DNA of 64,000 nt from a virus: IMG/VR virus record IMGVR_UViG_3300024270_000061. One strand, given 5' to 3'. The notes beneath the pieces were generated by a model. That model ran no database searches. It was not told where the DNA came from and saw only the letters and a program-made list of their open reading frames with translations. The translations under genes and the position numbers were made by a program. Every line of letters starts with the position of its first letter. Position 1 is the stretch's first letter. Positions 2,759 to 48,322 of this stretch are shown here, piece by piece.

Positions 2759-3662
2759 CTAAACCTTCGGTCGCACGGAACTAACCCTTGTTCTTCAAGG
2801 ACAAATCGCAGATCGTAATCATGCACCGTATAGCCGCGAGGGTTAAATGATACAGGAGAATCTGAATCCCATTTCAGCAAAATTCCCCAAAGATCAGGAT
2901 AATTTCTGCGAAGCAGTCTCAGTTGCTCTATGCTCTGATTATGACAAAACCAGCAGCCTCCGCGTGTAGCAGTCGTATAGATAGGCGAAAGCAAATCATT
3001 GTCTTCGCACCACTTACGGCAATCTGCTTCAGTCCAGCCAAGGGCGGCCAGAGGAGAAACTTTTGTCTTGCCGTCCAGCCGAGCCAACCTCTCAGGTTCA
3101 TCGGCGGCTATGCCTAAATAGCTTACGACAATATTTTTATCCGCCCCTTGCCGCTTGGGGCTATTCAAAAAGTCGATAGTGCCGCCATTTTCAGTCGGTC
3201 GTTGCACCAAGCACCCCGTATCATCGGGAACCCGTATATTTGATCCTTGCGAGTTCCCGATGTGCGAGCTTTGTAGAACACGCTCTCGTAAGTTAATCTT
3301 GCTTCCGTATTTGAGCTTCTTGCACCATGCTCCTCGCACCATAGGGAAGCCTCGGATTGAGCCGATGAACTTACCTGATGTGAGCGTTTGATAGAACATG
3401 GACTCGTAGCTCTCTCTCTCTCTCTCTCTCTGCCTTCGGCAGCATAGTGTTCAACCTCAATGCCCCAACGTCTTTTGATGATTTCGTCGGCTTTTGCCTT
3501 GAATTCGACCATCGGAGGTAAATCAGCCGGAATGGTGTCGGTTGCCCATACTTCTGCATGGATAATCCGATCCAGCGGCCAACCAAGTTGTTCTATTGCA
3601 CCGAGACAGGCAAGGCTGTCCTTGCCGTATGAGAGAGACAGGATATGCTCCGTCCTATCCAT
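2722..3662 (-). pseudogene. PAPS reductase-family PP-loop ATPase gene split into two frames at a (CT)11 tract
   Basis: ORF 3165..3662 carries the PP-loop SYGKDS and a DT..P...EF segment. ORF 2722..3399 carries GFPMVRGAW (cf. CysH KVEPMNRAL), GIAADEPER and the RGGCWFC cysteine pair. The two frames meet at the dinucleotide repeat; losing one CT unit would fuse them into a protein of about 300 aa. Confidence 0.65.
3410..3431. repeat. (CT)11 dinucleotide microsatellite inside the PAPS-reductase-like gene
   Basis: Read directly: c tctctctctc tctctctctc t. It is translated as (RE)n in both frames. Confidence 0.95.
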
Positions 3663-3665
3663 ATC

Positions 3666-4085
3666 TCAGATTTCCTTTATTTCAATCAGATCGCTGAATC
3701 GTTCTTTGATTGCTTCATTGAATTGTACTATGACGTTTTGCTCAACCCATTCGTAGACATACTGGTACGCCAAAGCCTTTCTGCGATGATTCTTATATTC
3801 ACGCGAACGCAATCCACGCTTTGCTACTCTGGTCATTGGGAATCCCAATCTGCGCTTGACATTGTTAGGCATCAGAAAAAGAAGCTCCTGCTCGGAGCAT
3901 TTCCTTAATAAAGAGATTCCGAATGGATACTTGAGGAAAAATTTGCAAATCTTTGCTTTGTGCCCATAAGCAAGTTGATATAACAGGTCTGGATGAATAA
4001 TTGTATTATTGCAAGAGAAGGTAGCTGTACTGCACAACTTTATGCTTTTCATCGCAAGATCCACTCCTGCTTGCTGGTATCCCAT
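3666..4085 (-). CDS. hypothetical protein (139 aa) carrying a third copy of the GFPM-R motif
   Basis: Contains NVKRRLGFPMTRVAKRG, resembling the RGFPMVRGAW segment of the neighbouring gene. Confidence 0.4.
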   Translation of the reverse strand: MGYQQAGVDLAMKSIKLCSTATFSCNNTIIHPDLLYQLAYGHKAKICKFFLKYPFGISLLRKCSEQELLFLMPNNVKRRLGFPMTRVAKRGLRSREYKNHRRKALAYQYVYEWVEQNVIVQFNEAIKERFSDLIEIKEI

Positions 4086-4315: not shown

Positions 4316-4815
4316 GGTTGATAAAGCACGATTTTTCCAGCTTTTTGACTTTCTTGAATATCGATGATCCGCTGATTGCGGCTTCCGCGATAACTCAGCG
4401 TAATATCTCTCTGATCTAAGATAAACGGCCCGTCAACGAGCACATCACACATGACCAGAAGCTCGCGCATCGAAGGATCTGCGATGATTTCTTCGTAAGT
4501 AAAGCCGCTATATACCCACACCGTAGATGCAGGCGACAGCTCTTTCAGTTCTTTGATGAACGGGATGATAGAATCTGCTGAATACATCGGATCTCCTCCG
4601 CTTAATGTGACGCCCGAAACAAAAGGCGTCTCTCTGACGTATTCTGCAATCTGTTCCTGAATCTCAGAACCAAATGATTTGCCGGTTTTGAAATCGTGAG
4701 ACTCCGGGTTGTGACATCCTTTGCAATGATGATTACATCCGCTGAAGAAAATCACAACCCGAACGCCATCGCCATCAACGATGGATTCAAAGTTGATGCC
4801 GACGATATTTGCCAT
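4312..4815 (-). CDS. nrdG: anaerobic ribonucleotide reductase activating protein (radical SAM)
   Basis: CNHHCKGCHN radical-SAM cluster motif; about 167 aa; TAATG overlap with nrdD. Confidence 0.9.
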   Translation of the reverse strand: MANIVGINFESIVDGDGVRVVIFFSGCNHHCKGCHNPESHDFKTGKSFGSEIQEQIAEYVRETPFVSGVTLSGGDPMYSADSIIPFIKELKELSPASTVWVYSGFTYEEIIADPSMRELLVMCDVLVDGPFILDQRDITLSYRGSRNQRIIDIQESQKAGKIVLYQP

Positions 4816-11011: not shown

Positions 11012-14000
11012 TTACGCAGCAGCTTCTTCGTCTGCTCGTATATGTCGATATGAATTCAAGACGAAGTATTGGCCTTTCTCACGATCCCAGTCGATGGCAT
11101 ATATAATGTCATCTTTTTTGATTGGCGCAAGCTCATAGATTCGATTAAAAACGGTAAACCTGCTCTCGATGCCGCTGCCAATGGATTGAGTAAGAATACT
11201 GTAGCCGAATTGCTTTCCGTCTGATCTGCGTTTCAAGGGGTAAACCTCTTTGATGAACAGCTTGGGACGGTCTGCTTCTTTCCCAGATATGTATCCATTC
11301 TGCCCCATAATCTCACTGTAGTTCCTGACCTTTATAACATCATTCACGTCAGGCAGATTTGAAGCACGAATCAGTTCTTCGACTTCAGACAAGATTTCCA
11401 TGACGTTAGTCAAAGTATAGGACTTTGCCTCAGTTCCATCTTTTCTGAGCCATGTAGCATGACTGCGGACAGGATTTTCAAGAATAGTGCCATCTACTGC
11501 TTCTCTCTTCAAAGTTTTAGCAGAGCCTTGCTTAAAGTAATTGAACAGTTCCCACATCTTCATCAGCTCACGCTGATTTCCATACTGCTGGAAATAATCA
11601 ATCTTGATGAGCGGCTCGACTTTTGCCTTGACTCCTCTTTGATCGAGATCGAACAGAAGCGCCATGAAGTCTTTGTGCTGAATCTGAGCAGAGCCCCACA
11701 GATGCTTTCCAATTGATGCAGAAAAACCTTTGATTGTGCTGATGGACTCAGTGATCTGGTTATTATCTGAGGTTGCTACAATCGAACGATTGTCCTGTCC
11801 AAAGCGCATAGGAGGAAATTTGATATTGAAAAAACGCTTTGCTTCAGCCTTCGCTTCTGCAATCTTGTCCTTTTCGCCTCGGGAATCATAGAATTTCAGA
11901 AGAGTTTCATAGAGCTCAAGAGGATAGTGGGCTTTCATCCATGCAATATACAACGAATCGCAACTCACGCAATAGGAATGTGAAGCATTGAAAGAATATC
12001 GCGCAGAGTCTTCGATGATTTGCCAGAGCTTCTCAGCAATCTGCTCAGCCTCTGTCTCTTCTTTTCCTTCGTCTTCGATGATAGCTTTTCTAAAACCAGC
12101 AATGAATTTTTCCTTATAAGCCAGAACCTTCTTGGCTCGCTTCTTGGCAATATCTTTGATGGCGACATAGCATTCGGACATAGGAATACCAGCATAGTTC
12201 AAAGCTGCCATTTCCTGTTCTTGGTACAAGCAGAAAGAAAAAGGAAGTTCATCAGTCTTTAGGATGTTGTCGAATGCTTTTACGCCATACTCAAATGGCT
12301 TGCGCGATTCGAATGTTTTGTACATAGACTTAAAACCAGGTCGGATTGCCGCCACAAAAGCGCACAGCTCAGAAATGTTTCTTGGCTGATATGCCGTACA
12401 TCTCGCGGCAGTTCCTTTGCGCTCTACCTGATTGACCCCCATACAGCAGCCCTTCTGATAAATGTCCCATGCGGGATCTTCAGGAGGACACATGGCAAGA
12501 AGTTCATTGACGGTTGGAACAGCCATCCCTACACGTTCATAAGCCATATTGATGAGTTTGACAACGGATACTTTCAGAAGGTCGTTCTTCAGGAAGTGCC
12601 CTTCCTCTGCCCAGTGACCATCCATCATACAACAGATGTTGTCGTTAATTCGAATGAGGCCGATCTGACGGCGAATACTGCCGTCATAAAGAAGATAGCC
12701 GCATGGAGCAATGCTCCAAGAGTCTGTGATCCCTCGGTAGTCAGCGGACTTCGTAAAGATTTCCTTGTATTCATCGGAAATATAATCCATGATGTCAATA
12801 TCATCTTTGAAGTCTTCATCAGCCTGTTTAACGGCTTCCTCATATCGCCTGATCTGTTCAGAAACCGCATTTGCCTCATCGAATGAAACGCCTTGAGCTT
12901 TTGCATAGAGCTTCCATGCTTTAGAAGTCTTCATAGGATGATAAGAAATCATTGGATACGCATGGTCTTCTCCAAGAATTTCCTGCTGAGCTTTTGCAAA
13001 GGTAGGAGGATCGGCCATATTGAGGTCAATATCAGGAAGTGTACCAGCCTGCAGAATTCTTGTGGCAGTCATAAAGCGGTCAGGATACATCTTGACCTTT
13101 GCAGCAATTCTGTCTACTTCGGTAAAACCAAGAAGCATATTGGTAATGAAACTTACAGCGCTGCCTCTGCCTGTTTTCGTAAGCAGACCGCCCATTTCTT
13201 TTCCTCTTTTGACAATCTCATGGTCAATAAGGAAGTAATCTGCCATATGACATTCTTTAACAGAATCAATCTCACTCTGAATTTCTGATTCATAGTGAGC
13301 ATGAAGCTCTTCAGGCACACTTGGCTTGTATTTTTCCCAGCCTTGCCATACGGTTCGCTCATATGCTTCGTCTCTTTGTTCCTGTGTCCAACCCTTCATT
13401 CTCGGAAGGGTTGGCAGCTTTAGACTCGTATCGAAAATCTCTGAATCATATGTCTCAACGTCCATGAATACGTTTGTATTGGACATTGCTTCATCGATTT
13501 GCGCAGCCGTAAGAACACCCTGTTGTAGGAAACGGTTATACGCCTCATCTCCATCTGGATAATCAAGGAACCACCCTTCTTCATCCTCGTAGCTAATGCC
13601 CTTCGAGAGGAGGAAATCGTCTCTATCTTGACTTTGCTGCGGAAGAATGTAGTGAGAGTCACATCCCATGATAATAGGAATCTTCAGTCTTTCACGAACT
13701 TGAAGAATTCGTTGGTTGAGTTGCTTCTGGGCGTCTGTCAAATGGTACTGCACTTCCAGAAAAAAGTTCTTTCCGAAGTGCTGCGACAGTTCTGCAATGA
13801 TGTTTTCAATGTCAGCATATTTCCAGAAGGCAACGCAAGCACTGGTAACAATGACATCGTTCTTCGGCAGCGATAGGAGCAATGGAATATCGATTCTTGG
13901 GCGCTTGTAGAAGCCCGTCAGATTTGCCTCAGACAGGATGTCATTGATGCACTGGCGGCCATTTTCATTTCGAGCTCCGATATAAATATGGCCGTTTGTT

Positions 14001-14248
14001 GGATCGGGCAGAGTCCTGTCTTTGACCCAATAGGCTTCAGCACCAAAGACAAACTTCAGATTGTGTTGCTGAGCCAGATTGTAACCTTCAATGTAACATC
14101 CCTGATTTCCATGTTCCATGGTAGAGATAATTCCATGGCCGAGCTCCAATGCTCGTTTGGCATAGTCTTCATTTGAAACCGTGGAATCAGGAACTACTAC
14201 ATTCGTTTTGTATGTATGACGATGGTAGTTCTGAAAAATGCGAGCTAT
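11012..14248 (-). CDS. dnaE: DNA polymerase III alpha-type (DnaE-like) replicase with PHP domain; true N-terminus lies upstream of the tracked TTG at 14149
   Basis: About 1045 aa. The pol frame stays open upstream of 14149 and encodes YHRHTYKTNVVVPDSTVSNEDYAKRALELGHGIISTMEHGNQG (PHP motifs HxH, DS, ELG..TDHG-like). There is no ATG/GTG/TTG between the in-frame stop at 14288-14290 and 14149. Confidence 0.85.
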   Translation of the reverse strand: MARIFQNYHRHTYKTNVVVPDSTVSNEDYAKRALELGHGIISTMEHGNQGCYIEGYNLAQQHNLKFVFGAEAYWVKDRTLPDPTNGHIYIGARNENGRQCINDILSEANLTGFYKRPRIDIPLLLSLPKNDVIVTSACVAFWKYADIENIIAELSQHFGKNFFLEVQYHLTDAQKQLNQRILQVRERLKIPIIMGCDSHYILPQQSQDRDDFLLSKGISYEDEEGWFLDYPDGDEAYNRFLQQGVLTAAQIDEAMSNTNVFMDVETYDSEIFDTSLKLPTLPRMKGWTQEQRDEAYERTVWQGWEKYKPSVPEELHAHYESEIQSEIDSVKECHMADYFLIDHEIVKRGKEMGGLLTKTGRGSAVSFITNMLLGFTEVDRIAAKVKMYPDRFMTATRILQAGTLPDIDLNMADPPTFAKAQQEILGEDHAYPMISYHPMKTSKAWKLYAKAQGVSFDEANAVSEQIRRYEEAVKQADEDFKDDIDIMDYISDEYKEIFTKSADYRGITDSWSIAPCGYLLYDGSIRRQIGLIRINDNICCMMDGHWAEEGHFLKNDLLKVSVVKLINMAYERVGMAVPTVNELLAMCPPEDPAWDIYQKGCCMGVNQVERKGTAARCTAYQPRNISELCAFVAAIRPGFKSMYKTFESRKPFEYGVKAFDNILKTDELPFSFCLYQEQEMAALNYAGIPMSECYVAIKDIAKKRAKKVLAYKEKFIAGFRKAIIEDEGKEETEAEQIAEKLWQIIEDSARYSFNASHSYCVSCDSLYIAWMKAHYPLELYETLLKFYDSRGEKDKIAEAKAEAKRFFNIKFPPMRFGQDNRSIVATSDNNQITESISTIKGFSASIGKHLWGSAQIQHKDFMALLFDLDQRGVKAKVEPLIKIDYFQQYGNQRELMKMWELFNYFKQGSAKTLKREAVDGTILENPVRSHATWLRKDGTEAKSYTLTNVMEILSEVEELIRASNLPDVNDVIKVRNYSEIMGQNGYISGKEADRPKLFIKEVYPLKRRSDGKQFGYSILTQSIGSGIESRFTVFNRIYELAPIKKDDIIYAIDWDREKGQYFVLNSYRHIRADEEAAA

Positions 14249-15246
14249 GACAAGCGCCTCCTTTCGCTGTAGAGCTTTTTGAATACTTCAAGTCCTTGGT
14301 CAGTAGGAGAGTCTTTATCTGGCAGCAAATTTCCGATGTTTTTCACCCATTCAACGCGGGCATATTGAGCCAGCTTCATAATGTTCTTATCCTTGGTGAT
14401 GTCTACGTCGGAATCCAAGGCAAAGACGATCCGAATCCCATGCCACGAACTCAGCTTCAACAAAAATTGATATTGATTTGGGCTAAGATGTGAGGTGAGG
14501 ATCGCAGATGTATTCAAATATCCCCACCCGGCCATCTTCAGACAGCTCTTTGCGCCTTCAAACAAGATGATTTCCTTGGATTGCATGATGGCATCTTTGT
14601 TATCTGAAAACCCGTAAAGAGTATCAACAGTACCAATTTCTTGAAAGTATGTATACTTCCGAATTTTCTTCGCTTTGAAATCCGGATCGCAGGTTCGACC
14701 GCAAACGCTGATGATATTGCCGTCATAATCTCTGATAGGATATACAATACGGTTATCAAAAGCATCGTATCGGATACTGTATTTACGCATGATGTCCCAG
14801 CTGATACCTTCATCTGCCCATATCTTGAGCTTGTCTTTACGAAACTCGTACCGATCCATATAGTTCGGAGGCAAAGGCTTGGCCGTCGCAATTGCCCGTG
14901 GCTTTACTCGATTGCGGTATTGCCTGGCGATTCTTGTTGCTTCCAGCCGGTGAGCAATTGTTCCATCCTGCTCGGATATGTTTGCGTACTTTCTCAAAAT
15001 ATTGACTGCGCCTTTTACCGAGACATTTTCATGTCTCATGACGAAATCAATAAGGTTTCCCCCAACCCCTGCGCTGAAGTCATACCAGAATCCTTTCTCG
15101 GGATTCAATGAAAATGAAGGAGTGTTTTCATCCTTAAATGGACTCAATCCCCACAGTTCGCCGCCTTTCTCTTCGAGATCGACGAACTGGGATATATATT
15201 CTGCAATGTCGATAGCCTCGATAATATCGGCGACTTCCATAGGCAT
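14245..15246 (-). CDS. dnaG: DnaG-like primase with Toprim domain and a cysteine-less zinc-ribbon remnant
   Basis: LSPFKDENTPSFSLNPEKGFWYDFSAGVGGNLIDFV matches DnaG CPFHDEKTPSF...CFGCG with Cys replaced. Toprim EIILFEGAKS and ALDSDVD. Confidence 0.8.
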   Translation of the reverse strand: MPMEVADIIEAIDIAEYISQFVDLEEKGGELWGLSPFKDENTPSFSLNPEKGFWYDFSAGVGGNLIDFVMRHENVSVKGAVNILRKYANISEQDGTIAHRLEATRIARQYRNRVKPRAIATAKPLPPNYMDRYEFRKDKLKIWADEGISWDIMRKYSIRYDAFDNRIVYPIRDYDGNIISVCGRTCDPDFKAKKIRKYTYFQEIGTVDTLYGFSDNKDAIMQSKEIILFEGAKSCLKMAGWGYLNTSAILTSHLSPNQYQFLLKLSSWHGIRIVFALDSDVDITKDKNIMKLAQYARVEWVKNIGNLLPDKDSPTDQGLEVFKKLYSERRRLS

Positions 15247-40736: not shown

Positions 40737-40827
40737 TGGCGGAGAGAGTGGGATTCGAACCCACGGACGGCGCGGAGCCGTCGGCGGTTTTCAAGACCGC
40801 TGCCTTAAGCCGCTCGGCCATCTCTCC
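40737..40827 (-). tRNA. tRNA-Ser (anticodon UGA), class II, CCA encoded
   Basis: RC: GGAGAGATGGCCGAGCGG...CTTGAAA...GGTTCGAATCC...CGCCA. Confidence 0.8.
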
Positions 40828-40835
40828 ATTACGGG

Positions 40836-41042
40836 TCAGTTTTTTGTAAAAGGTATAACCACTTCTTTAAGAGCTTGAATTCTATCGAAACGGTCATTGC
40901 GGCCATCAACCCAGCGTTCTTTACCACAGCGTTTACAGCGATATTTCCGCATTGAGAATCGAACATTGCCGTCAGTAGATTCAAACCAACTTACTTTAAC
41001 GAACTTATGTCTGCAGAATAATGAGATAAGCCATTTTTTCAT
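40836..41042 (-). CDS. small zinc-ribbon protein
   Basis: CKRCGK; basic. Confidence 0.35.
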   Translation of the reverse strand: MKKWLISLFCRHKFVKVSWFESTDGNVRFSMRKYRCKRCGKERWVDGRNDRFDRIQALKEVVIPFTKN

Positions 41043-41053
41043 ACTGCGTCTCC

Positions 41054-41353
41054 TTAGAACTTTCCAAGTATAACGGCCTTATCGGATATGTATTCGCCGT
41101 TAATGGTATTGAAGTATTGACCGATCGGGCGAACAAGATAGACGATTGGATTTCCTCCGTACTTAATACAGGCTTTCTTGGCAAATTTCTGAGCAGTAGC
41201 AAGAGACGTTGTGAAGAAAACCTTATCTTCGTACTTCTTCCTCCAATGTTCACGCTTGCAATTCGTGATGATGGGAGGCAAGAGAATTTTGTGAATTTGG
41301 AGAGAATCCGTAGTTCCATGATAGAAAACTTTAGTATTCGCCGGAAAATTCAT
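41054..41353 (-). CDS. mini ART-fold protein resembling the C-terminal NAD-binding lobe of Tpt1/KptA
   Basis: VFYHGTTDSLQIHKIL ... KVFFTTSLATAQKFAKKACIKYGGNPIVYLV resembles KptA LYHGTASRFLDEI...YVHLSAD...GSPVIL. No N-terminal RNA-binding lobe is present. Confidence 0.4.
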   Translation of the reverse strand: MNFPANTKVFYHGTTDSLQIHKILLPPIITNCKREHWRKKYEDKVFFTTSLATAQKFAKKACIKYGGNPIVYLVRPIGQYFNTINGEYISDKAVILGKF

Positions 41354-41609
41354 GTTCAATGACCTCGCATCCGTGGGCGGCGTCTTCGATGAGCCCAATC
41401 AAAAGAGCTTCTACGTCATCAAGAAGGTTTGCATAGGTACTCCCGTAAAGCCCAACCATATTGTCCGAATCTCTTTCTTCGTCCTCCGGACTGGGGATAC
41501 GGACATTATGCTGCTCAAGAATTTCTTCGAACATATCGATAATTCTTGCCGCTTCGTCATGCGTATAGATGGTCTTTCTATCCGAATCAGATTTGACTAT
41601 ACCCGTCAT
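41331..41609 (-). CDS. acidic hypothetical protein
   Basis: ORF. Confidence 0.35.
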   Translation of the reverse strand: MTGIVKSDSDRKTIYTHDEAARIIDMFEEILEQHNVRIPSPEDEERDSDNMVGLYGSTYANLLDDVEALLIGLIEDAAHGCEVIEHEFSGEY

Positions 41610-41838
41610 CGTACTCCTCCTTGATGATTTCTTGTCCTCTGCATCCTCTTTCGAGTCAAGCGGCTTGGAACGCTTCTTGCTGCATTACAAGCGGCAGACA
41701 GCCCAGTCCTACTATCTGCCGGATGTCCAGCTGTACTGGTTGGAGGGAACGCGATACTCCTGGCAAGCGCGAGCCTGTCTCCATCAAGCTCGTAAATGCG
41801 CTTTCATGCCCTGTCAATAACCAAGTGTATCGCAGCAG

Positions 41839-41914
41839 TGGTCTTCCTGGCGGGACTCGAACCCGCGACTCCTTGATTAAAAGTCAAGTGCTCTACCAAC
41901 TGAGCTACAGGAAG
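41839..41914 (-). tRNA. tRNA-Lys (UUU), CCA encoded
   Basis: RC: CTTCCTGTAGCTCAGTTGGTAGAGCACTTGACTTTTAATCAAG...GGTTCGAGTCCCGCCAGGAAGACCA. Confidence 0.85.
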
Positions 41915-41918
41915 GTAA

Positions 41919-41993
41919 TGGCGGCTCGTCAGGGATTCGAACCCCGAACCTATCGGTTAACAGCCGAGTGCTCTACCTTTGAGCTAACGAGCC
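41919..41993 (-). tRNA. tRNA-Asn (GUU), CCA encoded
   Basis: Anticodon loop CTGTTAA; T arm GGTTCGAATCC. Confidence 0.8.
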
Positions 41994-42031
41994 ATGATGC
42001 CACCGCCATTGTCGTAGAGGTGGCAAACAGA

Positions 42032-42223
42032 TTAGAATAACCGCTTTCCGCAAGTCGGGCAGCGGTAGATGGTGAAATTTCCGATCTTATAATCGGTTCC
42101 ATTGGTTTTGCAGTTGATCGGAAGATATTCGTTATCCCATTTCAGGCGATGGATTTCTCTTCCGTTCTTATCGACTTCGGCAACATATGGAACATAGCCT
42201 TTCGGATTGCATACACTGCACAT
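42032..42223 (-). CDS. zinc-ribbon small protein
   Basis: CSVCN ... CPTCGK. Confidence 0.35.
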   Translation of the reverse strand: MCSVCNPKGYVPYVAEVDKNGREIHRLKWDNEYLPINCKTNGTDYKIGNFTIYRCPTCGKRLF

Positions 42224-42536
42224 AAATCACGCACCTTCTTCCAGAAGATCGTCTTCAGTCATTTCATCCATGTCGCTTCTCATCGCCTGAAGTTTTCTCT
42301 GATCCGAAATCTTGTTGCTGGACATAGAATTCGGGCTACCTCCCCATGACTTGCGGGGATTGCACATACAGCAGGAGCAGTGAATCTTGTTCTTGGAATA
42401 TTGATGAAGATTGTCATACCAGTCTCCACCCATAATGTTCCTGACGATGGAACGCTTGCGTTTTGCATGTTTCCAATCCATCTTTCTGGAACGACCTCTG
42501 TTATTCGGCTTCATGCTATCACTCCTTGCTAAAGAA

Positions 42537-42629
42537 TGGCGGAAGGTGTGAGATTCGAACTCACGGTGCCCGAATTTCAGGCACGCCTGATTAGCAATCA
42601 GGTGCATTAAGCCACTCTGCCAACCTTCC
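42537..42629 (-). tRNA. tRNA-Ser (GCU), class II, CCA encoded
   Basis: Anticodon loop TTGCTAA; long variable arm. Confidence 0.8.
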
Positions 42630-42632
42630 AGA

Positions 42633-42707
42633 TGGAGCTCCCATTCGGATTTGAACCGAAAACCAATCGCTTACGATGCGATTGCTCTGCCGTTGAGCTA
42701 TAGGAGC
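42633..42707 (-). tRNA. tRNA-Thr (CGU), CCA encoded
   Basis: Anticodon loop ATCGTAA; T arm GGTTCAAATCC. Confidence 0.75.
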
Positions 42708-42975
42708 ACTTGTGTCTACAATTTCAATCGAACTTCCGATTTCTTCTCCAGCGCCTGCACCAACAGAAATCGCAATCCAGATACCCGACACGATGCCCGT
42801 CGATTTTGCACACCGAAGAACCATGCGCCACATGTTCTCGATTGCCACAACTTCCGCAGCAGCGCCCTTCTCTTACGTCGTCTGAAGCGTATACTTTCAG
42901 GCCGTTGTTGCTATTGCGAGTATCATAAGAAAGACATATGAGCAACGAGAACACCTCCTAAAATGATTGATGAAA

Positions 42976-43052
42976 TGGAGCCGGATATGGGACTCGAACC
43001 CATGACCCTGCGCTTACAAAACGCACGCTCTGGCCATCTGAGCTAATCCGGC
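42976..43052 (-). tRNA. tRNA-Thr (UGU), CCA encoded
   Basis: Anticodon loop TTTGTAA; T arm GGTTCGAGTCC. Confidence 0.75.
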
Positions 43053-43057
43053 ATGTG

Positions 43058-43133
43058 TGGTGGCCTCTGCTGGTAACGATCCAGCCTCCGTAGATTTTCA
43101 GTCTACTGCTTTCACCATGTAAGCTAAAAGGCC
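43058..43133 (-). tRNA. tRNA-Phe (GAA) candidate with atypical T-loop ATCGTTA
   Basis: RC: GGCCTTTTAGCTTACATGGTGAAAGCAGTAGACTGAAAATCTAC...GCTGGATCGTTACCAGCAGAGGCCACCA. Confidence 0.5.
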
Positions 43134-43140
43134 AAGTAAA

Positions 43141-43217
43141 TGGTGCCGAGGGTGGGACTTGAACCCACAAATCGCAGATTTTGAGGCTGCTTCCTATGCC
43201 ATTTCGGATACCCCGGC
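43141..43217 (-). tRNA. class-I tRNA with a CAA anticodon in loop CTCAAAA (identity ambiguous), CCA encoded
   Basis: RC: GCCGGGGTATCCGAAATGGCATAGGAAGCAGCCTCAAAATCTGCGATTTGTGGGTTCAAGTCCCACCCTCGGCACCA. Short variable arm. Confidence 0.55.
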
Positions 43218-43380
43218 TTGTGTGTTTCCCGCTTAGATTGAACATTGTATCCTTTGGGTCACGGCTACTCAGATCAAGCCGAACATTTGCAACTGTCCAG
43301 TTCCAATGCTTTTCAGCGGACATTTTCATTCTCTGTGAGGAATCCACAACGCTCACATCAGCAGGGAGCGACCCTGCATT

Positions 43381-43463
43381 TGGTATGGATGAAGGGATTC
43401 GAACCCTTACGCTTACGCACTGGGACTTAAAACCAGCGTGCCTGCCAATTACACCACATCCAC
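43381..43463 (-). tRNA. tRNA-Leu (UAA) candidate, class II, CCA encoded
   Basis: Anticodon region CTGGTTTTAAGTCCCAG; variable-arm hairpin TGCGTAAGCGTA; T arm GGTTCGAATCC. Confidence 0.6.
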
Positions 43464-43739
43464 TTAGTCTATTTTGTTGCGCCATTCATCATAGCTGGGA
43501 GGAGACATACCCTCATACTCATCGCTGTTATGGTCAATTGCCCATTGTACGAGGAACAAAAGATACCGCTCCCAACGCACGTCATAATCGTCCAGCAATG
43601 CACAATTGGTCAACCTCATGCCACTTTGTTCGAGCCATCCGAATTCATGCTCAAGCATTTCTATCGGAGGAAGCTCGGCTGTTGGCTCCTCTTGATAATT
43701 GATAATTGCAACGAAGGTTCTTTCATCCACCGCTATCAA
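43464..43739 (-). CDS. hypothetical protein (91 aa)
   Basis: ORF. Confidence 0.4.
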   Translation of the reverse strand: MIAVDERTFVAIINYQEEPTAELPPIEMLEHEFGWLEQSGMRLTNCALLDDYDVRWERYLLFLVQWAIDHNSDEYEGMSPPSYDEWRNKID

Positions 43740-43806
43740 CCTTTCCTATGGAAAGGCACCCCGCCACAATGAACGGGGTGCCAAGAGAATATGTGTTTAT
43801 GTACAA

Positions 43807-45300
43807 TTAGTGCTTGTCGGCAATAGCTCCACCAAGCATACCGGACAGCAGAGCCATCAGATCCAGACCGGTTGCATCCTTGAAGCCGTCTTGCACCTGC
43901 TTCATACCGGTCGTAACCGTGCCGGTCAGATTGGAGGTGCCGCCCTCGTAGATGGTCATGTTGTCGATGCTTTCCATGGGCTTCGCAATTGCCGCTGCAA
44001 TGTCCGGCATGGTCTTGACGTATTCCAACGCGACGTCCAGAACCATCTGCTGCTTCGCGGCATCGTCGTATTCCTTCATGGCTTCCGCCTTCTTCAGAAT
44101 ACCAACAGCTTCAGCCTCCGCTTTAGCCTGGATGGCTTCGGCTTCAGCGCGACCCTTTGCGGCAACGCCTGCCGCCTCGTTCTCCATAGCAATACGCTCT
44201 GCTTCGGAACGCGCCTTTTCGGCGGCGGCTCTTTGTTCAGCTTCGAACAGCTCAGCGTCTGCCTTCTTCTGTCGCTGGAAAAGCTCAGCCTCTGATGCCT
44301 TCTGAAGTTCGTACAGACGAGCGTCGGCTCTCTGCTGAGCAGCATACTTGTCTGCTTCAGCCTTCTTCTTGATCTCGGCATCCAGAGCGCGTTCACGGAT
44401 GGCGACTTCACGTTCCTTCAGCTCAATCTCCTTTTCCAGACGAGCCAAGTTAGCCTCGGCAGTCTTAGTTTCGATAGAAGCACGCTGTTCCTGCTCCTGA
44501 ATGGAATAAGCAGCATCGGCTTCTGCTCGCTTGGCATCCTCGATCTTTTTCAGTTCGGCTCTCTGGATTGCCAATTCGTTCTTGCGCTTAGCAATCTCTT
44601 GCTCAGACTTGACCTGAGCTTCGTTGGCAGCCATAGCGGCCTGCGCTCTGGCAATGGCAATTTCCTTTTCGGCCTGAGCCTTGGAAACAGCCGCATCCTT
44701 GGAAATCTGAACCGTGTTTTCCAGACCCAGATTATCAATGACGCCGTTGCGATCCTTGAAGTTCTGGATGTTGAAGGTGGTCAGCTCCAAGCCCATATCA
44801 CGCAGATTGGGCGTTACGTTCTCAATGATGCGTTCAGCGAAAGTCTTCTTGTCGCCCTGAATGAGTTCTTTCAGAGTGGTCTGAGAAATAATTTCGCGGA
44901 TGTTGCCTTCGAGAACGGGAGTGATGATTTCCTTGATTTGCTCGGGCTTATAGCCAAGGAACTTGGATGCTGCAATCTTCAGCAGTTCGGGTTCTTTGGA
45001 AATCGCCACGTTGGCCACCGCATCAACCATAATATTGATTGCGTCCTTGGTGGGAATCTCATCGCGGGAAGTAAAGTCGGACTGAATGTTTTCGAGCGAC
45101 ATGTAGTCAACTCGCTGGATAATGGGGATGACAAGAGCGCCCTGACCAATGATGGTTCTCGAACCACGCGGGCCGGTGATGACCATTGCAATGTTCGGGG
45201 GAGCCTTCTTGTACATAACCTTGCCGATGAAGACAACCAAGAGGACTGCGGCGATGAAACAACCAACAAAAACAGCGGCAGACATGATAGATTCGAGCAT
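43807..45300 (-). CDS. flotillin/SPFH (band 7) family membrane protein with a long EA-rich coiled coil
   Basis: N-terminal TM helix, an SPFH-like core (ITGPRGSRTIIGQGALVIPIIQ...) and a roughly 200-aa A/E/K-rich coiled coil. AAAGGAGA RBS. Confidence 0.75.
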   Translation of the reverse strand: MLESIMSAAVFVGCFIAAVLLVVFIGKVMYKKAPPNIAMVITGPRGSRTIIGQGALVIPIIQRVDYMSLENIQSDFTSRDEIPTKDAINIMVDAVANVAISKEPELLKIAASKFLGYKPEQIKEIITPVLEGNIREIISQTTLKELIQGDKKTFAERIIENVTPNLRDMGLELTTFNIQNFKDRNGVIDNLGLENTVQISKDAAVSKAQAEKEIAIARAQAAMAANEAQVKSEQEIAKRKNELAIQRAELKKIEDAKRAEADAAYSIQEQEQRASIETKTAEANLARLEKEIELKEREVAIRERALDAEIKKKAEADKYAAQQRADARLYELQKASEAELFQRQKKADAELFEAEQRAAAEKARSEAERIAMENEAAGVAAKGRAEAEAIQAKAEAEAVGILKKAEAMKEYDDAAKQQMVLDVALEYVKTMPDIAAAIAKPMESIDNMTIYEGGTSNLTGTVTTGMKQVQDGFKDATGLDLMALLSGMLGGAIADKH

Positions 45301-45409
45301 TCTGATTCTCCTTTGGTTCTATTTAAGTTCCCGCTGATACCAGCTCCGAGGATCACCCATCGCCCTGATAAGACTAATGCGAAAACCTTGAATCGGAGAT
45401 TTGATATAG

Positions 45410-45502
45410 CTTTAACCCTTGACCCTTAACGCTTGAGCTTTATTGCGTATAAACTTTAATGCCTAAGCCTTACACTTTGAGCTTTATGCTTTGAGCTTTG
45501 AG
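45410..45502. repeat. degenerate tandem heptamers (CTCAAAG on the minus strand; GCTTTGAG / CCTTAAC on plus) upstream of the flotillin gene
   Basis: Plus strand: ...cccttgacccttaacgcttgagctttatt...ctttgagctttatgctttgagctttgag. Confidence 0.7.
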
Positions 45503-45530
45503 ACAAAAAACAAGCGCTCCTGGCTTGTTT
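45501..45530 (-). terminator. Rho-independent terminator
   Basis: Stem AACAAGC/GCTTGTT with loop GCTCCTG, followed on the minus strand by TTTTTTGT. Confidence 0.7.
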
Positions 45531-45673
45531 CTCTATGCTTTGCATAGCATCTTCATATTATATCGCAACCCAAATGCGTTTCCCTGTTTACATTTATTTG
45601 GCATTCGTCCAAACAGGGGAAAGTGTCGAATGAGCCTATCGTTTAGGGTTTTCAGTAACAGCGGAATCTTATT

Positions 45674-46321
45674 TTACTTGGTATCGTAGCTGACAGTGAT
45701 GGTAGTCAGCGCATTGCTTACGCTCAGCGCAGCATCAATTTCAGCATCGAAAGCATCGATCTGCTCACTGAGCTGTTCGACCTTGGCTTTGATGTCAAGG
45801 GGATCGACCATATCCAGAGAGTTCATTTCGATGTATGCTTCACGGGTCTTAATGGCTTCGTCACTCTTTGCCTTTTCACTGTTGGCAAACAGGCCGGAAA
45901 CATAGGCGTCTGCCTTAGCCTGAAGCTCATCTCCGTTGGTGCGCTTGAAGTCCAGCGTTGCGGCAGCGAACTGCACTGTCATCTGCTTGACAAGCAGACG
46001 CAGGTTTTCCATGCCGGTCTTCTTCATCTCAATGGCTTCTGCAACCGTATAGGACTTGCCGCCAATGGTCACTTTGGTCTGGGCATTGGAGATGGACAGC
46101 GCATTACGGATCGCCGCTCTGCGATTGATACGAGCAATGATGCTTTCATAATCGCTCTTCATGCCATCCTTGTAGTCACCGACAGGCTTGCCGGCAATCT
46201 TATCATTAGAATGCTTGTTCGTGGTAATAAAAGTCGTGCCACGAATCTGATTCTGGATTCGATCATCCAGAATCTTGAGGGTGCTGAGAGCCTGATGGAC
46301 AGTCATGGTTTCCGTAGTCAT
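45674..46321 (-). CDS. hypothetical protein (215 aa)
   Basis: ORF. Confidence 0.5.
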   Translation of the reverse strand: MTTETMTVHQALSTLKILDDRIQNQIRGTTFITTNKHSNDKIAGKPVGDYKDGMKSDYESIIARINRRAAIRNALSISNAQTKVTIGGKSYTVAEAIEMKKTGMENLRLLVKQMTVQFAAATLDFKRTNGDELQAKADAYVSGLFANSEKAKSDEAIKTREAYIEMNSLDMVDPLDIKAKVEQLSEQIDAFDAEIDAALSVSNALTTITVSYDTK

Positions 46322-46349
46322 GTAAATACCCCTTCCTTTTCTTCTGAGT

Positions 46350-46424
46350 TGGCTGTGGCGGTTGGGTTCGAACCAACGAATGCGGGAGTCAAAGTCCCGT
46401 GCCTTACCGCTTGGCTACGCCACA
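46350..46424 (-). tRNA. tRNA-Gln (UUG), CCA encoded
   Basis: U1-A72; anticodon loop CTTTGAC; T arm GGTTCGAACC. Confidence 0.8.
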
Positions 46425-46427
46425 ATG

Positions 46428-46502
46428 TGGTGGAGGATAAGGGGCTCGAACCCTCAACCTTCCGCTTGCAAAGCGGATGCTCTACCTTTGAGCTAATCCC
46501 CC
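46428..46502 (-). tRNA. tRNA-Ala (UGC), CCA encoded
   Basis: G3-U70 identity pair; anticodon loop TTTGCAA. Confidence 0.85.
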
Positions 46503-46783
46503 AGGTTGCACAGCGACCAATCTTCATCTCCAATGTCATGCTGAATTAAGGTGGACATGGAACAAGCGTCCTTGCGTGAGCTCCCACAGGCCAAGTGCCA
46601 TATCTCTCAATGTTCTATTAGCCCTTAATCCCTCTGCGTAATTCGTCTTATGAGTGCATTCCATCAGTTAGAAAAACCGATCCTGCGCATGGCGGCTTCT
46701 ATTCAGTTTTGAAAGGACGTATAAAGCCGCAACGGTAGTCCGTTTTCGCAGCTACGGATGTCTAATTTGTGCTGCGTCAGCGT

Positions 46784-46857
46784 TGCGCCCGAAGGGAATC
46801 GAACCCTTGACCACGCAGTTTCCCCTGCGTGACTCTACCAACTGAGTTACGAGGCGC
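46784..46857 (-). tRNA. tRNA-like gene with an aberrant 6-nt anticodon loop (GGGAAA) and no encoded CCA; possible pseudo-tRNA
   Basis: RC: GCGCCTCGTAACTCAGTTGGTAGAGTCACGCAGGGGAAACTGCGTGGTCAAGGGTTCGATTCCCTTCGGGCGCA. Good D and T arms; 7-bp anticodon stem with a 6-nt loop. Confidence 0.45.
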
Positions 46858-47044
46858 ATAGAAACCTCTGATACTTTTTCATCGCTTGTTTTCACAACCC
46901 TGAATCAATTAACAGGAAACGGTTTAATGTTATCAGAGGCGAGACGACCTAAGCCTTTTTGCCGTTAGAAAGCATTATCTTGTCGCCTGGAGGGGCGGAT
47001 TTTCTCATGCTCCGCCATACAAGGAACCCTGAATCTAACTGGGT

Positions 47045-47121
47045 TGGCAGGGGAAGAAGGATTTGAACCCTCATCTACATCTGATTTGGAATCAGGAGTT
47101 TTTCCGTTAAACTATTCCCCT
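47045..47121 (-). tRNA. tRNA-Trp (CCA), CCA encoded
   Basis: Anticodon loop TTCCAAA; T arm GGTTCAAATCC. Confidence 0.8.
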
Positions 47122-47179
47122 TCGTAAGCGACTGCCGAAACAACCGCTACTTTTGATAGACTTACGCCTTTATGATGGC

Positions 47180-47256
47180 TGGCGCACCAAGAGGGACTCG
47201 AACCCCCGACACATGGCTTAGAAGGCCAATGCTCTATCCATCTGAGCTACTGGTGC
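47180..47256 (-). tRNA. tRNA-Arg (UCU), CCA encoded
   Basis: Anticodon loop CTTCTAA; T arm GGTTCGAGTCC. Confidence 0.8.
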
Positions 47257-47261
47257 AGAAG

Positions 47262-47335
47262 TGGAGCACCGTGCGGGAATCGAACCCGCGACACATACTT
47301 GGAAGGAACGTGTTTTGCCACTAAACTAACGGTGC
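47262..47335 (-). tRNA. tRNA-Gly (UCC), CCA encoded
   Basis: Anticodon loop CTTCCAA; T arm GGTTCGATTCC. Confidence 0.75.
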
Positions 47336-48123
47336 GCAGTTATGATGTCAACCACAGGAATTCTAAGTTTCCTGCACCATTTTTTAACTGAGTTGCCCGT
47401 TACGTTATATTTGCGACCAACTGCGCACAGGCTCTTCAGCTGTAAAATATCTTTAATTAGATCGTCTCTGGTAGGAATACATCCATTTTTCATTTGTGCA
47501 ATATGAGAACACTTTATGGAACAATACTTCTGACCTTTGGAGCGACTTTGAAATACTGAAGAACACACTCCGCATACTCTTTTACCGCACTGGATATTGC
47601 TATCGATTGGCCTCAGTTTGTCTTTACTGACCAACTTTCTATATACGGATTGAGTTCTTATCGGGTATTCAATGTCATCCATCACCCAGCTATCGCCTCG
47701 ATTGATCGAACGTACCATACTACCTGAAATGCCAACAATATCGCCAATCTCATCCGTAGAATACGAAGTAGTTTTCAGCATATCGACTATTTTGCTGTAT
47801 AGCTCATTCGTCATAATATTACTGTGGCCATCTTGTCCTCCCGGAGTCGAATTGTAACCATTCGGAACCATGCTGTTGTAATACGAAATCCAGTATCTTT
47901 CCTTTTCATTGAGTTCGGACGTTAAACAGCTTTCTACCACCTCAAACGAGAAATTTTCTATCCCGTATTTTGCAAAGGCCTTATATAGTGGAAGATGCAG
48001 CAATCTTTCTTCATGCGCCGACTTATGATTATTCCATCTTTTTGATATACACCTGGATTGTCCTATGTATATCTTACCGTTAATCCGATTTTGAATCTTA
48101 TAGATCCCAATTTCTTTCGCCAT
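47326..48123 (-). mobile_element. GIY-YIG homing endonuclease gene inside the tRNA cluster
   Basis: GIYKIQNRINGKIYIGQS ... NGYN motifs. Its 3' end overlaps the 5' end of tRNA-Gly by about 10 nt. Confidence 0.8.
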
Positions 48124-48154
48124 TTCGTTATCCTACTCATAATGAATTGCTATT

Positions 48155-48231
48155 TGGTCTGGCTGACAGGATTTGAACCTGCGACCTCGTGATCCCAAAT
48201 CACGCCATCTACCAAACTGATATACAGCCAG
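48155..48231 (-). tRNA. tRNA-Pro (UGG), CCA encoded
   Basis: Anticodon loop TTTGGGA; T arm GGTTCAAATCC. Confidence 0.8.
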
Positions 48232-48237
48232 ATACTG

Positions 48238-48322
48238 TGGTGGGCGGAGGTGGATTTGAACCACCGCATCCAGAGGAGCCTGATTTACAGTCAGGTGCCT
48301 TTGACCGCTCGGCCATCCGCCC
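48238..48322 (-). tRNA. tRNA-Tyr (GUA), class II, CCA encoded
   Basis: Anticodon loop CTGTAAA; long variable arm. Confidence 0.8.

Follow-up and report, generated by a model that had tools for sequence, protein, structure and literature searches.

The region analysed here lies in a 64,000-nt stretch of viral DNA (IMG/VR record IMGVR_UViG_3300024270_000061), referred to below as the window. All genes in the region are on the minus strand. A helicase gene (DnaB by Pfam) lies upstream of a DnaG-like primase gene, and the 3' end of the latter overlaps the frame of a DnaE-type polymerase. The two closest relatives are L150 (P0002, 90% identical) and L151 (P0003, 88% identical), which come from independent assemblies. 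The features of the region are as follows:

14245-15246, minus strand: coding sequence of a DnaG-like primase (Pfam Zn_ribbon_DnaG and DNAG_N), whose actual start is likely ATG 15240, preceded at 8 nt by AAGGAGGT (SD scan)
14288-14290, minus strand: TGA closing the polymerase frame upstream, kept in L150 and L151
14275-14281, minus strand: C-AAA-AAG in the primase frame, a proposed slippery site, judged non-functional
14257-14265, minus strand: extended Shine-Dalgarno (SD) sequence GAAAGGAGG, complementary over 9 nt to the 3' end of the 16S rRNA
14246-14248, minus strand: ATA (AUA), proposed non-canonical initiation codon 8 nt after GGAGG, also ATA in L150 and L151
14245-14247, minus strand: primase stop TAG overlapping the ATA (ATAG), with a geometry as in ATGA coupling, kept in L150 and L151
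14237-14239, minus strand: in-frame ATT, 17 nt behind the SD and a minor candidate for the start
14216-14224, minus strand: His-Arg-His codons (cat cgt cat) of PHP motif I, aligned and conserved in all homologues
14147-14149, minus strand: TTG, first canonical start in the polymerase frame and the gene-caller choice, which loses the HxH and DS motifs; rejected as the start
11012-14248, minus strand: coding sequence of a DnaE-type (Pol III alpha-like) polymerase, re-annotated from the ATA start at 14248 to a stop ending at 11012 (1078 codons)

The product of this last gene is a C-family replicative polymerase (DnaE / Pol III alpha-like) with an N-terminal PHP domain. Pfam assigns PHP (PF02811, 1.1e-13), DNA_pol3_alpha (PF07733, 6.8e-27) and finger (PF17657, 4.3e-14) domains in that order, and the protein matches Taq DnaE (2hpi), in nearly the same N-terminal register, as well as G. 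kaustophilus PolC (3f2b). The same domain set is found in other phage-encoded C-family polymerases, for example those of Lactococcus phage 949, Geobacillus virus E3 and Bacillus phage pW2, which are 41-49% identical over the N-terminal 296 aa and begin a few residues before NxHxH. Unlike the window gene, these annotated genes have ATG, GTG or TTG starts. An alignment to pW2 that begins at query residue 4 passes through a stop codon and was discarded as spurious. The polymerase clade of the window is associated with Clostridia MAGs.

After the TGA at 14290-14288, the polymerase frame translates as SIQKALQRKEALVIARIFQNYHRHTYKTNVVVPDSTVSNEDYAKRALELGHG. It holds no ATG, GTG or TTG before the TTG at 14149-14147, with the HxH and DS motifs inside this stretch, so that the PHP motifs do precede any canonical start, as the initial annotation had observed. 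Since homologues align to the polymerase from NYHRH onward, this startless stretch is real coding sequence. An alternative genetic code with TGA or TAG reassigned was also weighed and set aside; under table 11 the ORFs for helicase, primase and polymerase are all complete and of normal length.

The primase frame covers the same DNA, as had also been noted, and ends as ...GLEVFKKLYSERRRLS* with the TAG at 14247-14245. Relative to it the polymerase frame is -1, with an overlap of 42 nt (14 codons). At the junction, tcATAGct, the ATA overlaps the primase stop, an arrangement that the initial annotation had not described. By its layout, the primase-polymerase junction is an overlapping stop/start pair (4 nt, same strand) of the translational-coupling type, the coupling itself being putative. 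It shares with AUGA/UAAUG coupling the four-nucleotide start/stop overlap and an SD inside the 3' end of the upstream gene; relatives have ATGA or TAATG at this place, and the closer ones with ATG use TAATG or ATGA overlaps. Here, the overlapping start is AUA instead (AUAG, with AUAA in the relative L085), and the possible overlaps listed in the literature consulted are AUGA, UAAUG and UGAUG only (PMC3592434). An exact-protein look-up of the window primase returned no record, and in tblastn comparisons the primase is poorly conserved and in most relatives not adjacent to the polymerase. Because of this, primase-polymerase synteny is usable for L150 and L151 only.

The SD of the polymerase lies within this overlap. 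AAGGAGG occupies 14263-14257 (with GAAAGGAGG starting at 14265) and is followed by the 8-nt spacer cgcttgtc and the in-frame ATA at 14248-14246. In the SD scan, the score of GAAAGGAGG ties for the strongest among the long ORFs of the window. All other genes in the window with a strong SD start at ATG, GTG or TTG. The ATA is the sole SD-spaced start candidate in the polymerase ORF. None of the window's 17 tRNAs is an initiator-like or Ile tRNA able to decode AUA, and an Rfam scan of 10.5-17.5 kb returned no RNA element at E <= 0.1.

Both closest relatives retain the SD (GAAGGAGG in L150, GAAAGGAGG in L151) and, 8 nt behind it, the ATA with its overlapping TAG, despite many substitutions around them; the exact ATAG arrangement is common to these three sequences only. 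To compare selection on the two frames, variable columns and codons in the window, L150 and L151 were scored upstream and downstream of the ATA. Over the 60 nt before the ATA, third positions of the primase frame make up 13 of the 20 variable columns, and variable codons of that frame are synonymous-only in 11 cases and amino-acid-changing in 3. Read in the polymerase frame, the same interval has 1 synonymous-only codon vs 14 that change the amino acid, stops included. Downstream of the ATA there are 45 variable columns, of which 37 fall on third positions of the polymerase frame; in that frame, 31 variable codons are synonymous-only and 7 change the amino acid. Judged by these substitutions, the frame under selection switches at the ATA, and purifying selection on the polymerase frame starts there.

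Homologous proteins begin at a matching position. In all homologues the start lies 2-10 codons before NYHxH. Among those with an ATG, the nearest have the N-terminus MKIFQNYHRH or MRVYQNYHRH, which places their start one codon from the position of the ATA in the window. This answers the suggestion that homologues be searched for an ATG at this position.

To examine the start region more widely, polymerase N-termini in relatives were located by tblastn anchoring on the HxH motif. About 8% of ~105 distinct homologous junctions lack a canonical start altogether; in a count over 113 distinct junctions, 12 are devoid of ATG, GTG and TTG from the in-frame stop to the motif. These 12 obligate non-canonical junctions have ATA, ATC or CTG 4-9 nt after an SD, 8 of them at 7-9 nt; examples are L037 (GGAGGTGgattaaATA), L086 (GGGGGTGATatcATA), L155 (GGGTGATttagATA), L165 (GGAGGTGAgatcATA) and L157 (CTG). 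Across the family, starts are spaced 4-11 nt from the SD, with a mode of 8 nt. The obligate non-canonical cases also have the stronger SDs, with a median score of 11.5 vs 9 (one-sided Mann-Whitney p = 0.011). Another 10 junctions are probable AUH starts by an SD-based, heuristic classification, and up to ~15% of junctions probably use ATA, ATT or ATC. In a control on AUH starts of other genes in the relatives' loci, a conserved ATT was found on the neighbouring primase-helicase gene. Given this, the idea of a pattern specific to the polymerase was dropped for one at the level of the replication module or clade. In the library of literature searched, we came upon no account of a phage DnaE gene with a non-AUG start.

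Taken together, we consider it highly probable, on sequence evidence, that the polymerase is made as a protein of its own, with translation beginning at the AUA at 14248-14246, and is not the product of a frameshift. The initial annotation had offered a start at this ATA, driven by the AAGGAGG 8 nt before it, as a fallback. It is strongly supported by the conservation of SD, spacing and ATA in both closest relatives, by the onset of polymerase-frame constraint at the ATA, and by the recurrence of SD-spaced ATA, ATT, ATC or CTG in many independent relatives.

A weak non-AUG start behind an extended SD is a known type, to which the polymerase start belongs together with those of infC and ccpN. 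Experimental precedent exists in Bacillota: in S. aureus, AUA is the start codon of infC, ccpN and citZ and AUU that of cvfC1, each behind an extended SD, and reporters of such starts gave ~10% of AUG expression, ccpN reaching ~30% in rich medium (PMC13009471). These genes, like E. coli infC and pcnB (AUU), share with the window polymerase a weak AUH start, canonical spacing and an unusually long or strong SD, and in them, as here, the non-canonical codon is kept among orthologues. For them as for the polymerase, attenuated and IF3-sensitive translation would be the expected consequence. They differ in encoding a host regulator or translation factor, whereas the window gene encodes a phage replicative polymerase. 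Furthermore, in the window the AUA overlaps an upstream stop (AUAG), and within the family ATG, GTG, TTG, ATA, ATT, ATC and CTG interchange at one position.

In the mechanism that we propose, the 9-nt extended SD, ending 8 nt before the AUA, would position the ribosomes, and ribosomes ending on the primase UAG probably also deliver initiation through the AUAG overlap, in analogy to AUGA. The initiator tRNA would pair with the AUA with a mismatch at the third position. The predicted product, (f)Met-Ala-Arg-Ile-Phe-Gln-Asn-Tyr-His-Arg-His at its N-terminus ((f)Met-ARIFQNYHRHT..., 1078 aa translated length), would retain the whole PHP domain. The weak AUA presumably limits polymerase synthesis to a fraction of the AUG level and would make it sensitive to IF3 proofreading, while the strong SD and the coupling may keep it from falling to zero.

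Initiation could also be placed at the ATT at 14239-14237 (MFQNYHRH...), reached by ribosomes that shift a few nucleotides downstream from the primase UAG. Bacterial starts at this codon are documented for infC and pcnB, and this ATT is conserved in the window, L150 and L151 and lies just 5 nt past the primase stop. However, its 17-nt distance from the SD is far beyond the 4-11 nt of every start in the family, and the relatives L086, L155 and L091 lack an AUH at this position yet have one close to the SD. The Ala codon between the ATA and the ATT varies only synonymously in the polymerase frame (gct, gcg, gca), and the Ile encoded by the ATT simply fills a position that homologues keep hydrophobic (I, V, L or Y). 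We therefore regard a start at the ATT as improbable.

It is very improbable that the startless N-terminus is an artefact or a sign of decay, whether through a sequencing or assembly error (an ATG misread as ATA, or the 1-nt indel that the initial annotation had named as a possible refutation), through pseudogenization, or through a polymerase that starts at TTG 14149 and lacks HxH. The exact sequence is known from one copy, with the primase protein off record and no near-identical DNA among 50,697 phage genomes, and gene callers place the starts of relatives downstream of the motif. Against this, the identical ATA/ATAG and frame relation recurs in two independent assemblies at 88-90% identity, L150 and L151; with the SD and its spacing retained there as well, a sequencing error is ruled out. 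The 33 codons from ATA to TTG are under strong purifying selection, with motifs conserved in all homologues, and the rest of the ORF is intact over 1078 codons with all polymerase domains. Homologues that start at the TTG without HxH had likewise been named as a refutation; the homologue starts found precede NYHxH.

The AUA start of the polymerase was finally weighed against the principal proposal of the initial annotation, a programmed -1 slip at C-AAA-AAG (14281-14275) that would fuse primase to polymerase through the peptide EVFKK-ALQRKEALVIAR. In dnaX, -1 frameshifting involves A-AAA-AAG, an upstream SD-like element and a downstream hairpin. The site resembles that of dnaX in that a replication gene carries the Lys-Lys dicodon AAA-AAG and the -1 frame is open behind it. 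The heptamer is present in the window, although it does not directly adjoin the polymerase-frame stop, as had been stated, but lies 6 nt past the TGA. Over the 42-nt overlap the polymerase frame is -1 to that of the primase, a relation that any start/stop overlap of the type ATGA, TAATG or ATAG brings with it. The window has 15 in-frame AAA-AAG per 21,468 codons, and the a priori chance of one of falling inside the 14-codon overlap is ~1%, a coincidence that we note and do not explain. A weak SD-like AAGGA lies ~11 nt upstream of the heptamer; it reads AGGGG in relatives and encodes the conserved primase residues QGLE.

The heptamer itself does not conform to X-XXY-YYZ. Its first base is C, so that the first X is lacking and the P-site Lys tRNA would have to re-pair on CAA; only the A-site tRNA can re-pair. 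The site is not conserved, being CGC-AAG in L150 and CGA-AAG in L151, and in L151 a polymerase-frame TAG stands between the slip site and the ATA. No hairpin or other stable structure follows: folding of the next 70 nt gives an MFE of -6.7 kcal/mol, which is weaker than the -8.1 kcal/mol that shuffled sequences reach on average (z = +0.62). The polymerase frame upstream of the ATA, which the slip would translate, shows no coding constraint, and relatives differ both in the gene that lies upstream and in its relative frame. Moreover, in L037, L155 and L157 a frameshift could not supply the N-terminus because an in-frame stop directly precedes the AUH (CTG in L157). A single fused ORF, which the initial annotation had proposed to look for in homologous phages, was absent from ~170 homologous loci and from 120 database proteins. 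We thus give next to no credence to the frameshift, a tempting yet false candidate that the analysis removes. The result is of use chiefly for annotation.

In a broader context, we entertain, with more doubt than confidence, the reading that this clade of large Clostridia-associated phages deliberately sets weak AUH (occasionally CUG) starts behind extended SDs on replisome genes. These would comprise the DnaE polymerase in ~8-15% of lineages and the primase-helicase of a whole subclade, with its conserved AUU, and would act as a throttle, under selection and sensitive to IF3, by which the stoichiometry or timing of the replisome is tied to the translational state of the infected cell. The data give a modest hint that these Clostridia-associated phages throttle replisome genes by a non-AUG start combined with an SD. 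Bacillota phages may set the levels of replisome proteins by start-codon weakness and SD strength. The polymerase, and by extension the primase-helicase, would extend the short list of genes in which a non-AUG start is conserved, and current phage gene callers would, if the throttle exists, be truncating such proteins systematically.

Callers that allow only ATG, GTG and TTG (Prodigal-type) start the polymerase at TTG 14149 and thereby delete the HxH metal ligands of the PHP domain. The database relatives P0002, P0003 and P0005 are truncated in the same way. Such truncated relatives begin 'MLVPDST...' or 'MSNEDYA...' and have lost HxH. Truncated N-termini were found in 25 of the 120 best database cluster representatives, and among the truncated representatives checked at the DNA level (n=7), five have ATA, ATC or CTG at the SD-spaced position.

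The primase-polymerase junction is laid out on the minus strand as follows:

16603-15254, minus strand, DnaB helicase
15246/15240-14245, minus strand, DnaG-like primase
14290-14288, minus strand, TGA in the polymerase frame
14281-14275, minus strand, C-AAA-AAG
14263-14257, minus strand, AAGGAGG, part of GAAAGGAGG, which begins at 14265
14248-14246, minus strand, in-frame ATA, 8 nt past AAGGAGG
ending at 11012, minus strand, Pol III alpha/DnaE-like polymerase ORF

The polymerase frame, which is -1 relative to the primase frame, translates after the TGA as SIQKALQRKEALVIARIFQNYHRHTYKTNVVVPDSTVSNEDYAKRALELGHG, and TTG 14149 is its first ATG, GTG or TTG codon. Codon reading and translation thereby bear out the initial annotation, which had described a polymerase frame devoid of canonical starts before this TTG, with the HxH motif upstream of it. 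The primase terminates as ...GLEVFKKLYSERRRLS*, with its TAG at 14247-14245. Its ORF offers two ATGs, at 15246 and 15240; because AAGGAGGT lies 8 nt from the second and only 2 nt from the first, the primase probably starts at ATG 15240 (MEVADII...) and not at the first ATG given by the ORF finder.

By comparison with its homologues, the startless stretch is genuine coding sequence. A tblastn search against phage genomes matched 452 records, with alignments starting at about residues 14-18 of the translated stretch, right before NYHRH. Annotated homologues begin MRYNNYHKHT (Perkons), VRYENLHKHT (pW2), LRYNNYHKHT (E3) and MTDLNALTYQNIHSHS (949). More specifically, the start lies 2-10 codons ahead of the Asn of NYHxH in 84 tblastn-anchored loci, and the motif is offset from the N-terminus by 2-10 residues, most commonly 5, in the best 120 database proteins. 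The N-terminal register of the alignment with Taq DnaE is almost identical. TTG 14149 was rejected as the start, since it would delete both the HxH and DS motifs, which every homologue retains.

The nearest polymerases in a large protein database, P0002 (90% identical), P0003 (88%) and P0005 (77%), have gene-caller starts ('MLVPDST...' or 'MSNADYA...') past the HxH motif. The contigs of these relatives derive from different assemblies, and the gene order PD-(D/E)XK, DnaB, DnaG, polymerase is common to the window and L150, the locus carrying P0002. The junctions of the window, L150 and L151 (carrying P0003) read:

Window: ttcAAAAAGctctacagcgAAAGGAGGcgcttgtcATAGctcgc
L150: ttcCGCAAGctctacagcgGAAGGAGGcggctgtcATAGcgcac
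L151: tttCGAAAGctgtatagcgAAAGGAGGaggctgtcATAGcacgt

The Shine-Dalgarno sequence (SD) and the ATA are kept in all three, as are the 8 nt between them and the overlap with the TAG, and the frame of their substitution pattern changes exactly at the ATA. Of the 20 variable columns in the 60 nt upstream, 13 are third positions of the primase frame; codons with synonymous-only versus amino-acid-changing differences number 11 versus 3 in the primase frame and 1 versus 14 in the polymerase frame, where stops also occur. Over the 147 nt downstream, polymerase-frame third positions account for 37 of 45 variable columns (31 synonymous-only versus 7 amino-acid-changing codons). This comparison places the beginning of polymerase coding at the ATA or no more than a couple of codons away. 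Junction conservation and substitution patterns therefore exclude both a sequencing error as the origin of the startless stretch and a conserved trans-frame product.

The initial annotation had offered AAGGAGG, 8 nt upstream of the ATA, as a fallback explanation through a non-canonical start. Conservation, the frame switch at the ATA and recurrence in the family support this reading, which we consider very likely to be correct. The SD would direct initiation at AUA, probably coupled to termination, yielding a full-length polymerase of 1078 residues. The primase stop shares bases with the ATA (tcATAGct), an overlap absent from the initial annotation, and this ATAG has a geometry like that of ATGA-type translational coupling. 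At overlapping stop/start junctions, reinitiation and de novo initiation contribute roughly equally (PMC3592434). No SD in the window is stronger than that of the polymerase, which ties for first and is the only strong one there with a non-canonical codon. Retapamulin profiling and reporters have demonstrated AUA starts in S. aureus infC, ccpN and citZ and an AUU start in cvfC1, all four with extended SDs; reporter output was ~10% of that of AUG, and in rich medium ccpN reached ~30% (PMC13009471). In E. coli, infC and pcnB start at AUU (PMC3592434). By analogy, AUA might throttle polymerase output and confer IF3 sensitivity. The practical value of the ATA start lies in annotation.

A minor alternative is initiation at ATT 14239; however, this codon lies 17 nt from the SD, and its counterpart is missing in relatives that retain an SD-proximal AUA, AUU or AUC (AUH). 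The main proposal of the initial annotation, a -1 slip at C-AAA-AAG fusing primase to polymerase, is rejected. In its favor, an in-frame AAA-AAG (15 per 21,468 minus-strand ORF codons) had a prior chance of only ~1% within the 14-codon overlap, a coincidence outweighed by the comparative data. The heptamer does not fit X-XXY-YYZ, and the 70 nt that follow it form no more stable a fold than shuffled sequences do (MFE -6.7 kcal/mol, z = +0.62). Whereas the dnaX stimulator lies upstream of its site, the strong SD here lies downstream. Furthermore, the supposed slippery site is not conserved across the window, L150 and L151, and L151 carries a polymerase-frame TAG between its position and the ATA. 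Selection on a trans-frame product is likewise lacking, and no primase-polymerase fusion was found among the homologous loci and database proteins. The suggested homologue check did reveal an ATG at the junction in some relatives, as TAATG or ATGA, and the upstream gene differs in identity and relative frame from one relative to another; the -1 relation is thus a by-product of overlapping start/stop arrangements.

Across 113 distinct junctions, an SD-spaced canonical start is present in 91 (ATG 67, GTG 12, TTG 12). Twelve form an obligate class, without any ATG, GTG or TTG between the in-frame stop and NYHxH, and have ATA, ATC or CTG 4-9 nt past the SD (7-9 nt in 8 of the 12). Ten more have a properly spaced ATT, ATA or ATC, and their only canonical codons fall within the SD or far upstream of it. 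Apparent truncation of the protein was the reason for including five of the 113 loci; the obligate class accounts for ~8% in the unbiased scans (8/105 in one, 1/13 distinct junctions in another). Its SD scores are higher (median 11.5 versus 9; one-sided Mann-Whitney p = 0.011). Example junctions are:

L037: GGAGGTGgattaaATA
L086: GGGGGTGATatcATA
L085: ...GGTGAatctacATAA
L155: GGGTGATttagATA
L165: GGAGGTGAgatcATA
L152: GGAGGtgttgatcATC
L033: GGAGGTGAttatcATT
L157: GGGGttgattaaCTG

A stop codon directly precedes the AUH in several of these, and the N-terminus is therefore obtainable only by initiation at that codon. At ~350-400 in L157/L158, a polymerase-frame TAA followed by CTG 8 nt past GGGG suggests a CTG start. 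L130 and L137, near 2900-3010, share a conserved polymerase-frame peptide, PYS..D.LE..Y.ENYH, that reaches back >30 codons from the motif; this stretch contains no ATG, GTG or TTG and no obvious SD.

As a control for polymerase specificity, the remaining long ORFs at the same loci were scanned for AUH starts, and these ORFs refuted it. Relatives with 60-65% identity encode a ~650-aa primase-helicase (Zn_ribbon_DnaG, Toprim_2, DnaB_C) upstream of the polymerase. Its N-terminus, IFVDKE..., starts at a conserved ATT 8-9 nt past GGAGGT in eight distinct loci (L006, L007, L011, L012, L016, L018, L036 and L063), ~1 kb into each, e.g. 1028 in L012. Most of these have no canonical start; in L018 an in-frame GTG falls within the SD. 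The aligned start is ATA in L027, ACG in L013 and L026, and ATG, TTG or GTG in more distant relatives. Since the primase-helicase also shows an AUH start with a strong SD, weak start codons combined with strong SDs look like a replication-module trait of this clade, a moderately interesting clade-level lead. Related sequences occur in MAGs labelled Christensenella, Acutalibacter, Lawsonibacter and other Clostridia, consistent with Bacillota-type SD usage.

Relatives' proteins upstream of the polymerase (e.g. in L007, L012, L036, L037, L052 and L057) have short acidic/aromatic C-terminal tails, ...DEEEIYG... or ...EEEVYG... in primase-helicases and ...DDDLF* in a ~380-aa protein, which may be a conserved protein-interaction tail. 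The primase tail in the window contains ...GLEVFKK....

Seventeen tRNA genes cluster at 40737-48322 on the minus strand; ARAGORN found no tRNA-Met or tRNA-Ile among the tRNAs in the window and returned 'tRNA-???', anticodon 'ga', at 46782-46858. In most relatives the polymerase ORF breaks off after ~403 aa, precisely at the catalytic ...TLPD|IDLN motif. Inserts of ~270-290 nt split the L150 gene at 3661-3926 and 4384-4671, scoring 34 and 46 bits against Rfam Intron_gpI (E 1e-6 and 3e-10), under the gathering score. A group I intron is clear in L152 (76.8 bits, 225-505), just past the called DnaB ORF ending at 237. The window polymerase, 11012-14248, is uninterrupted.
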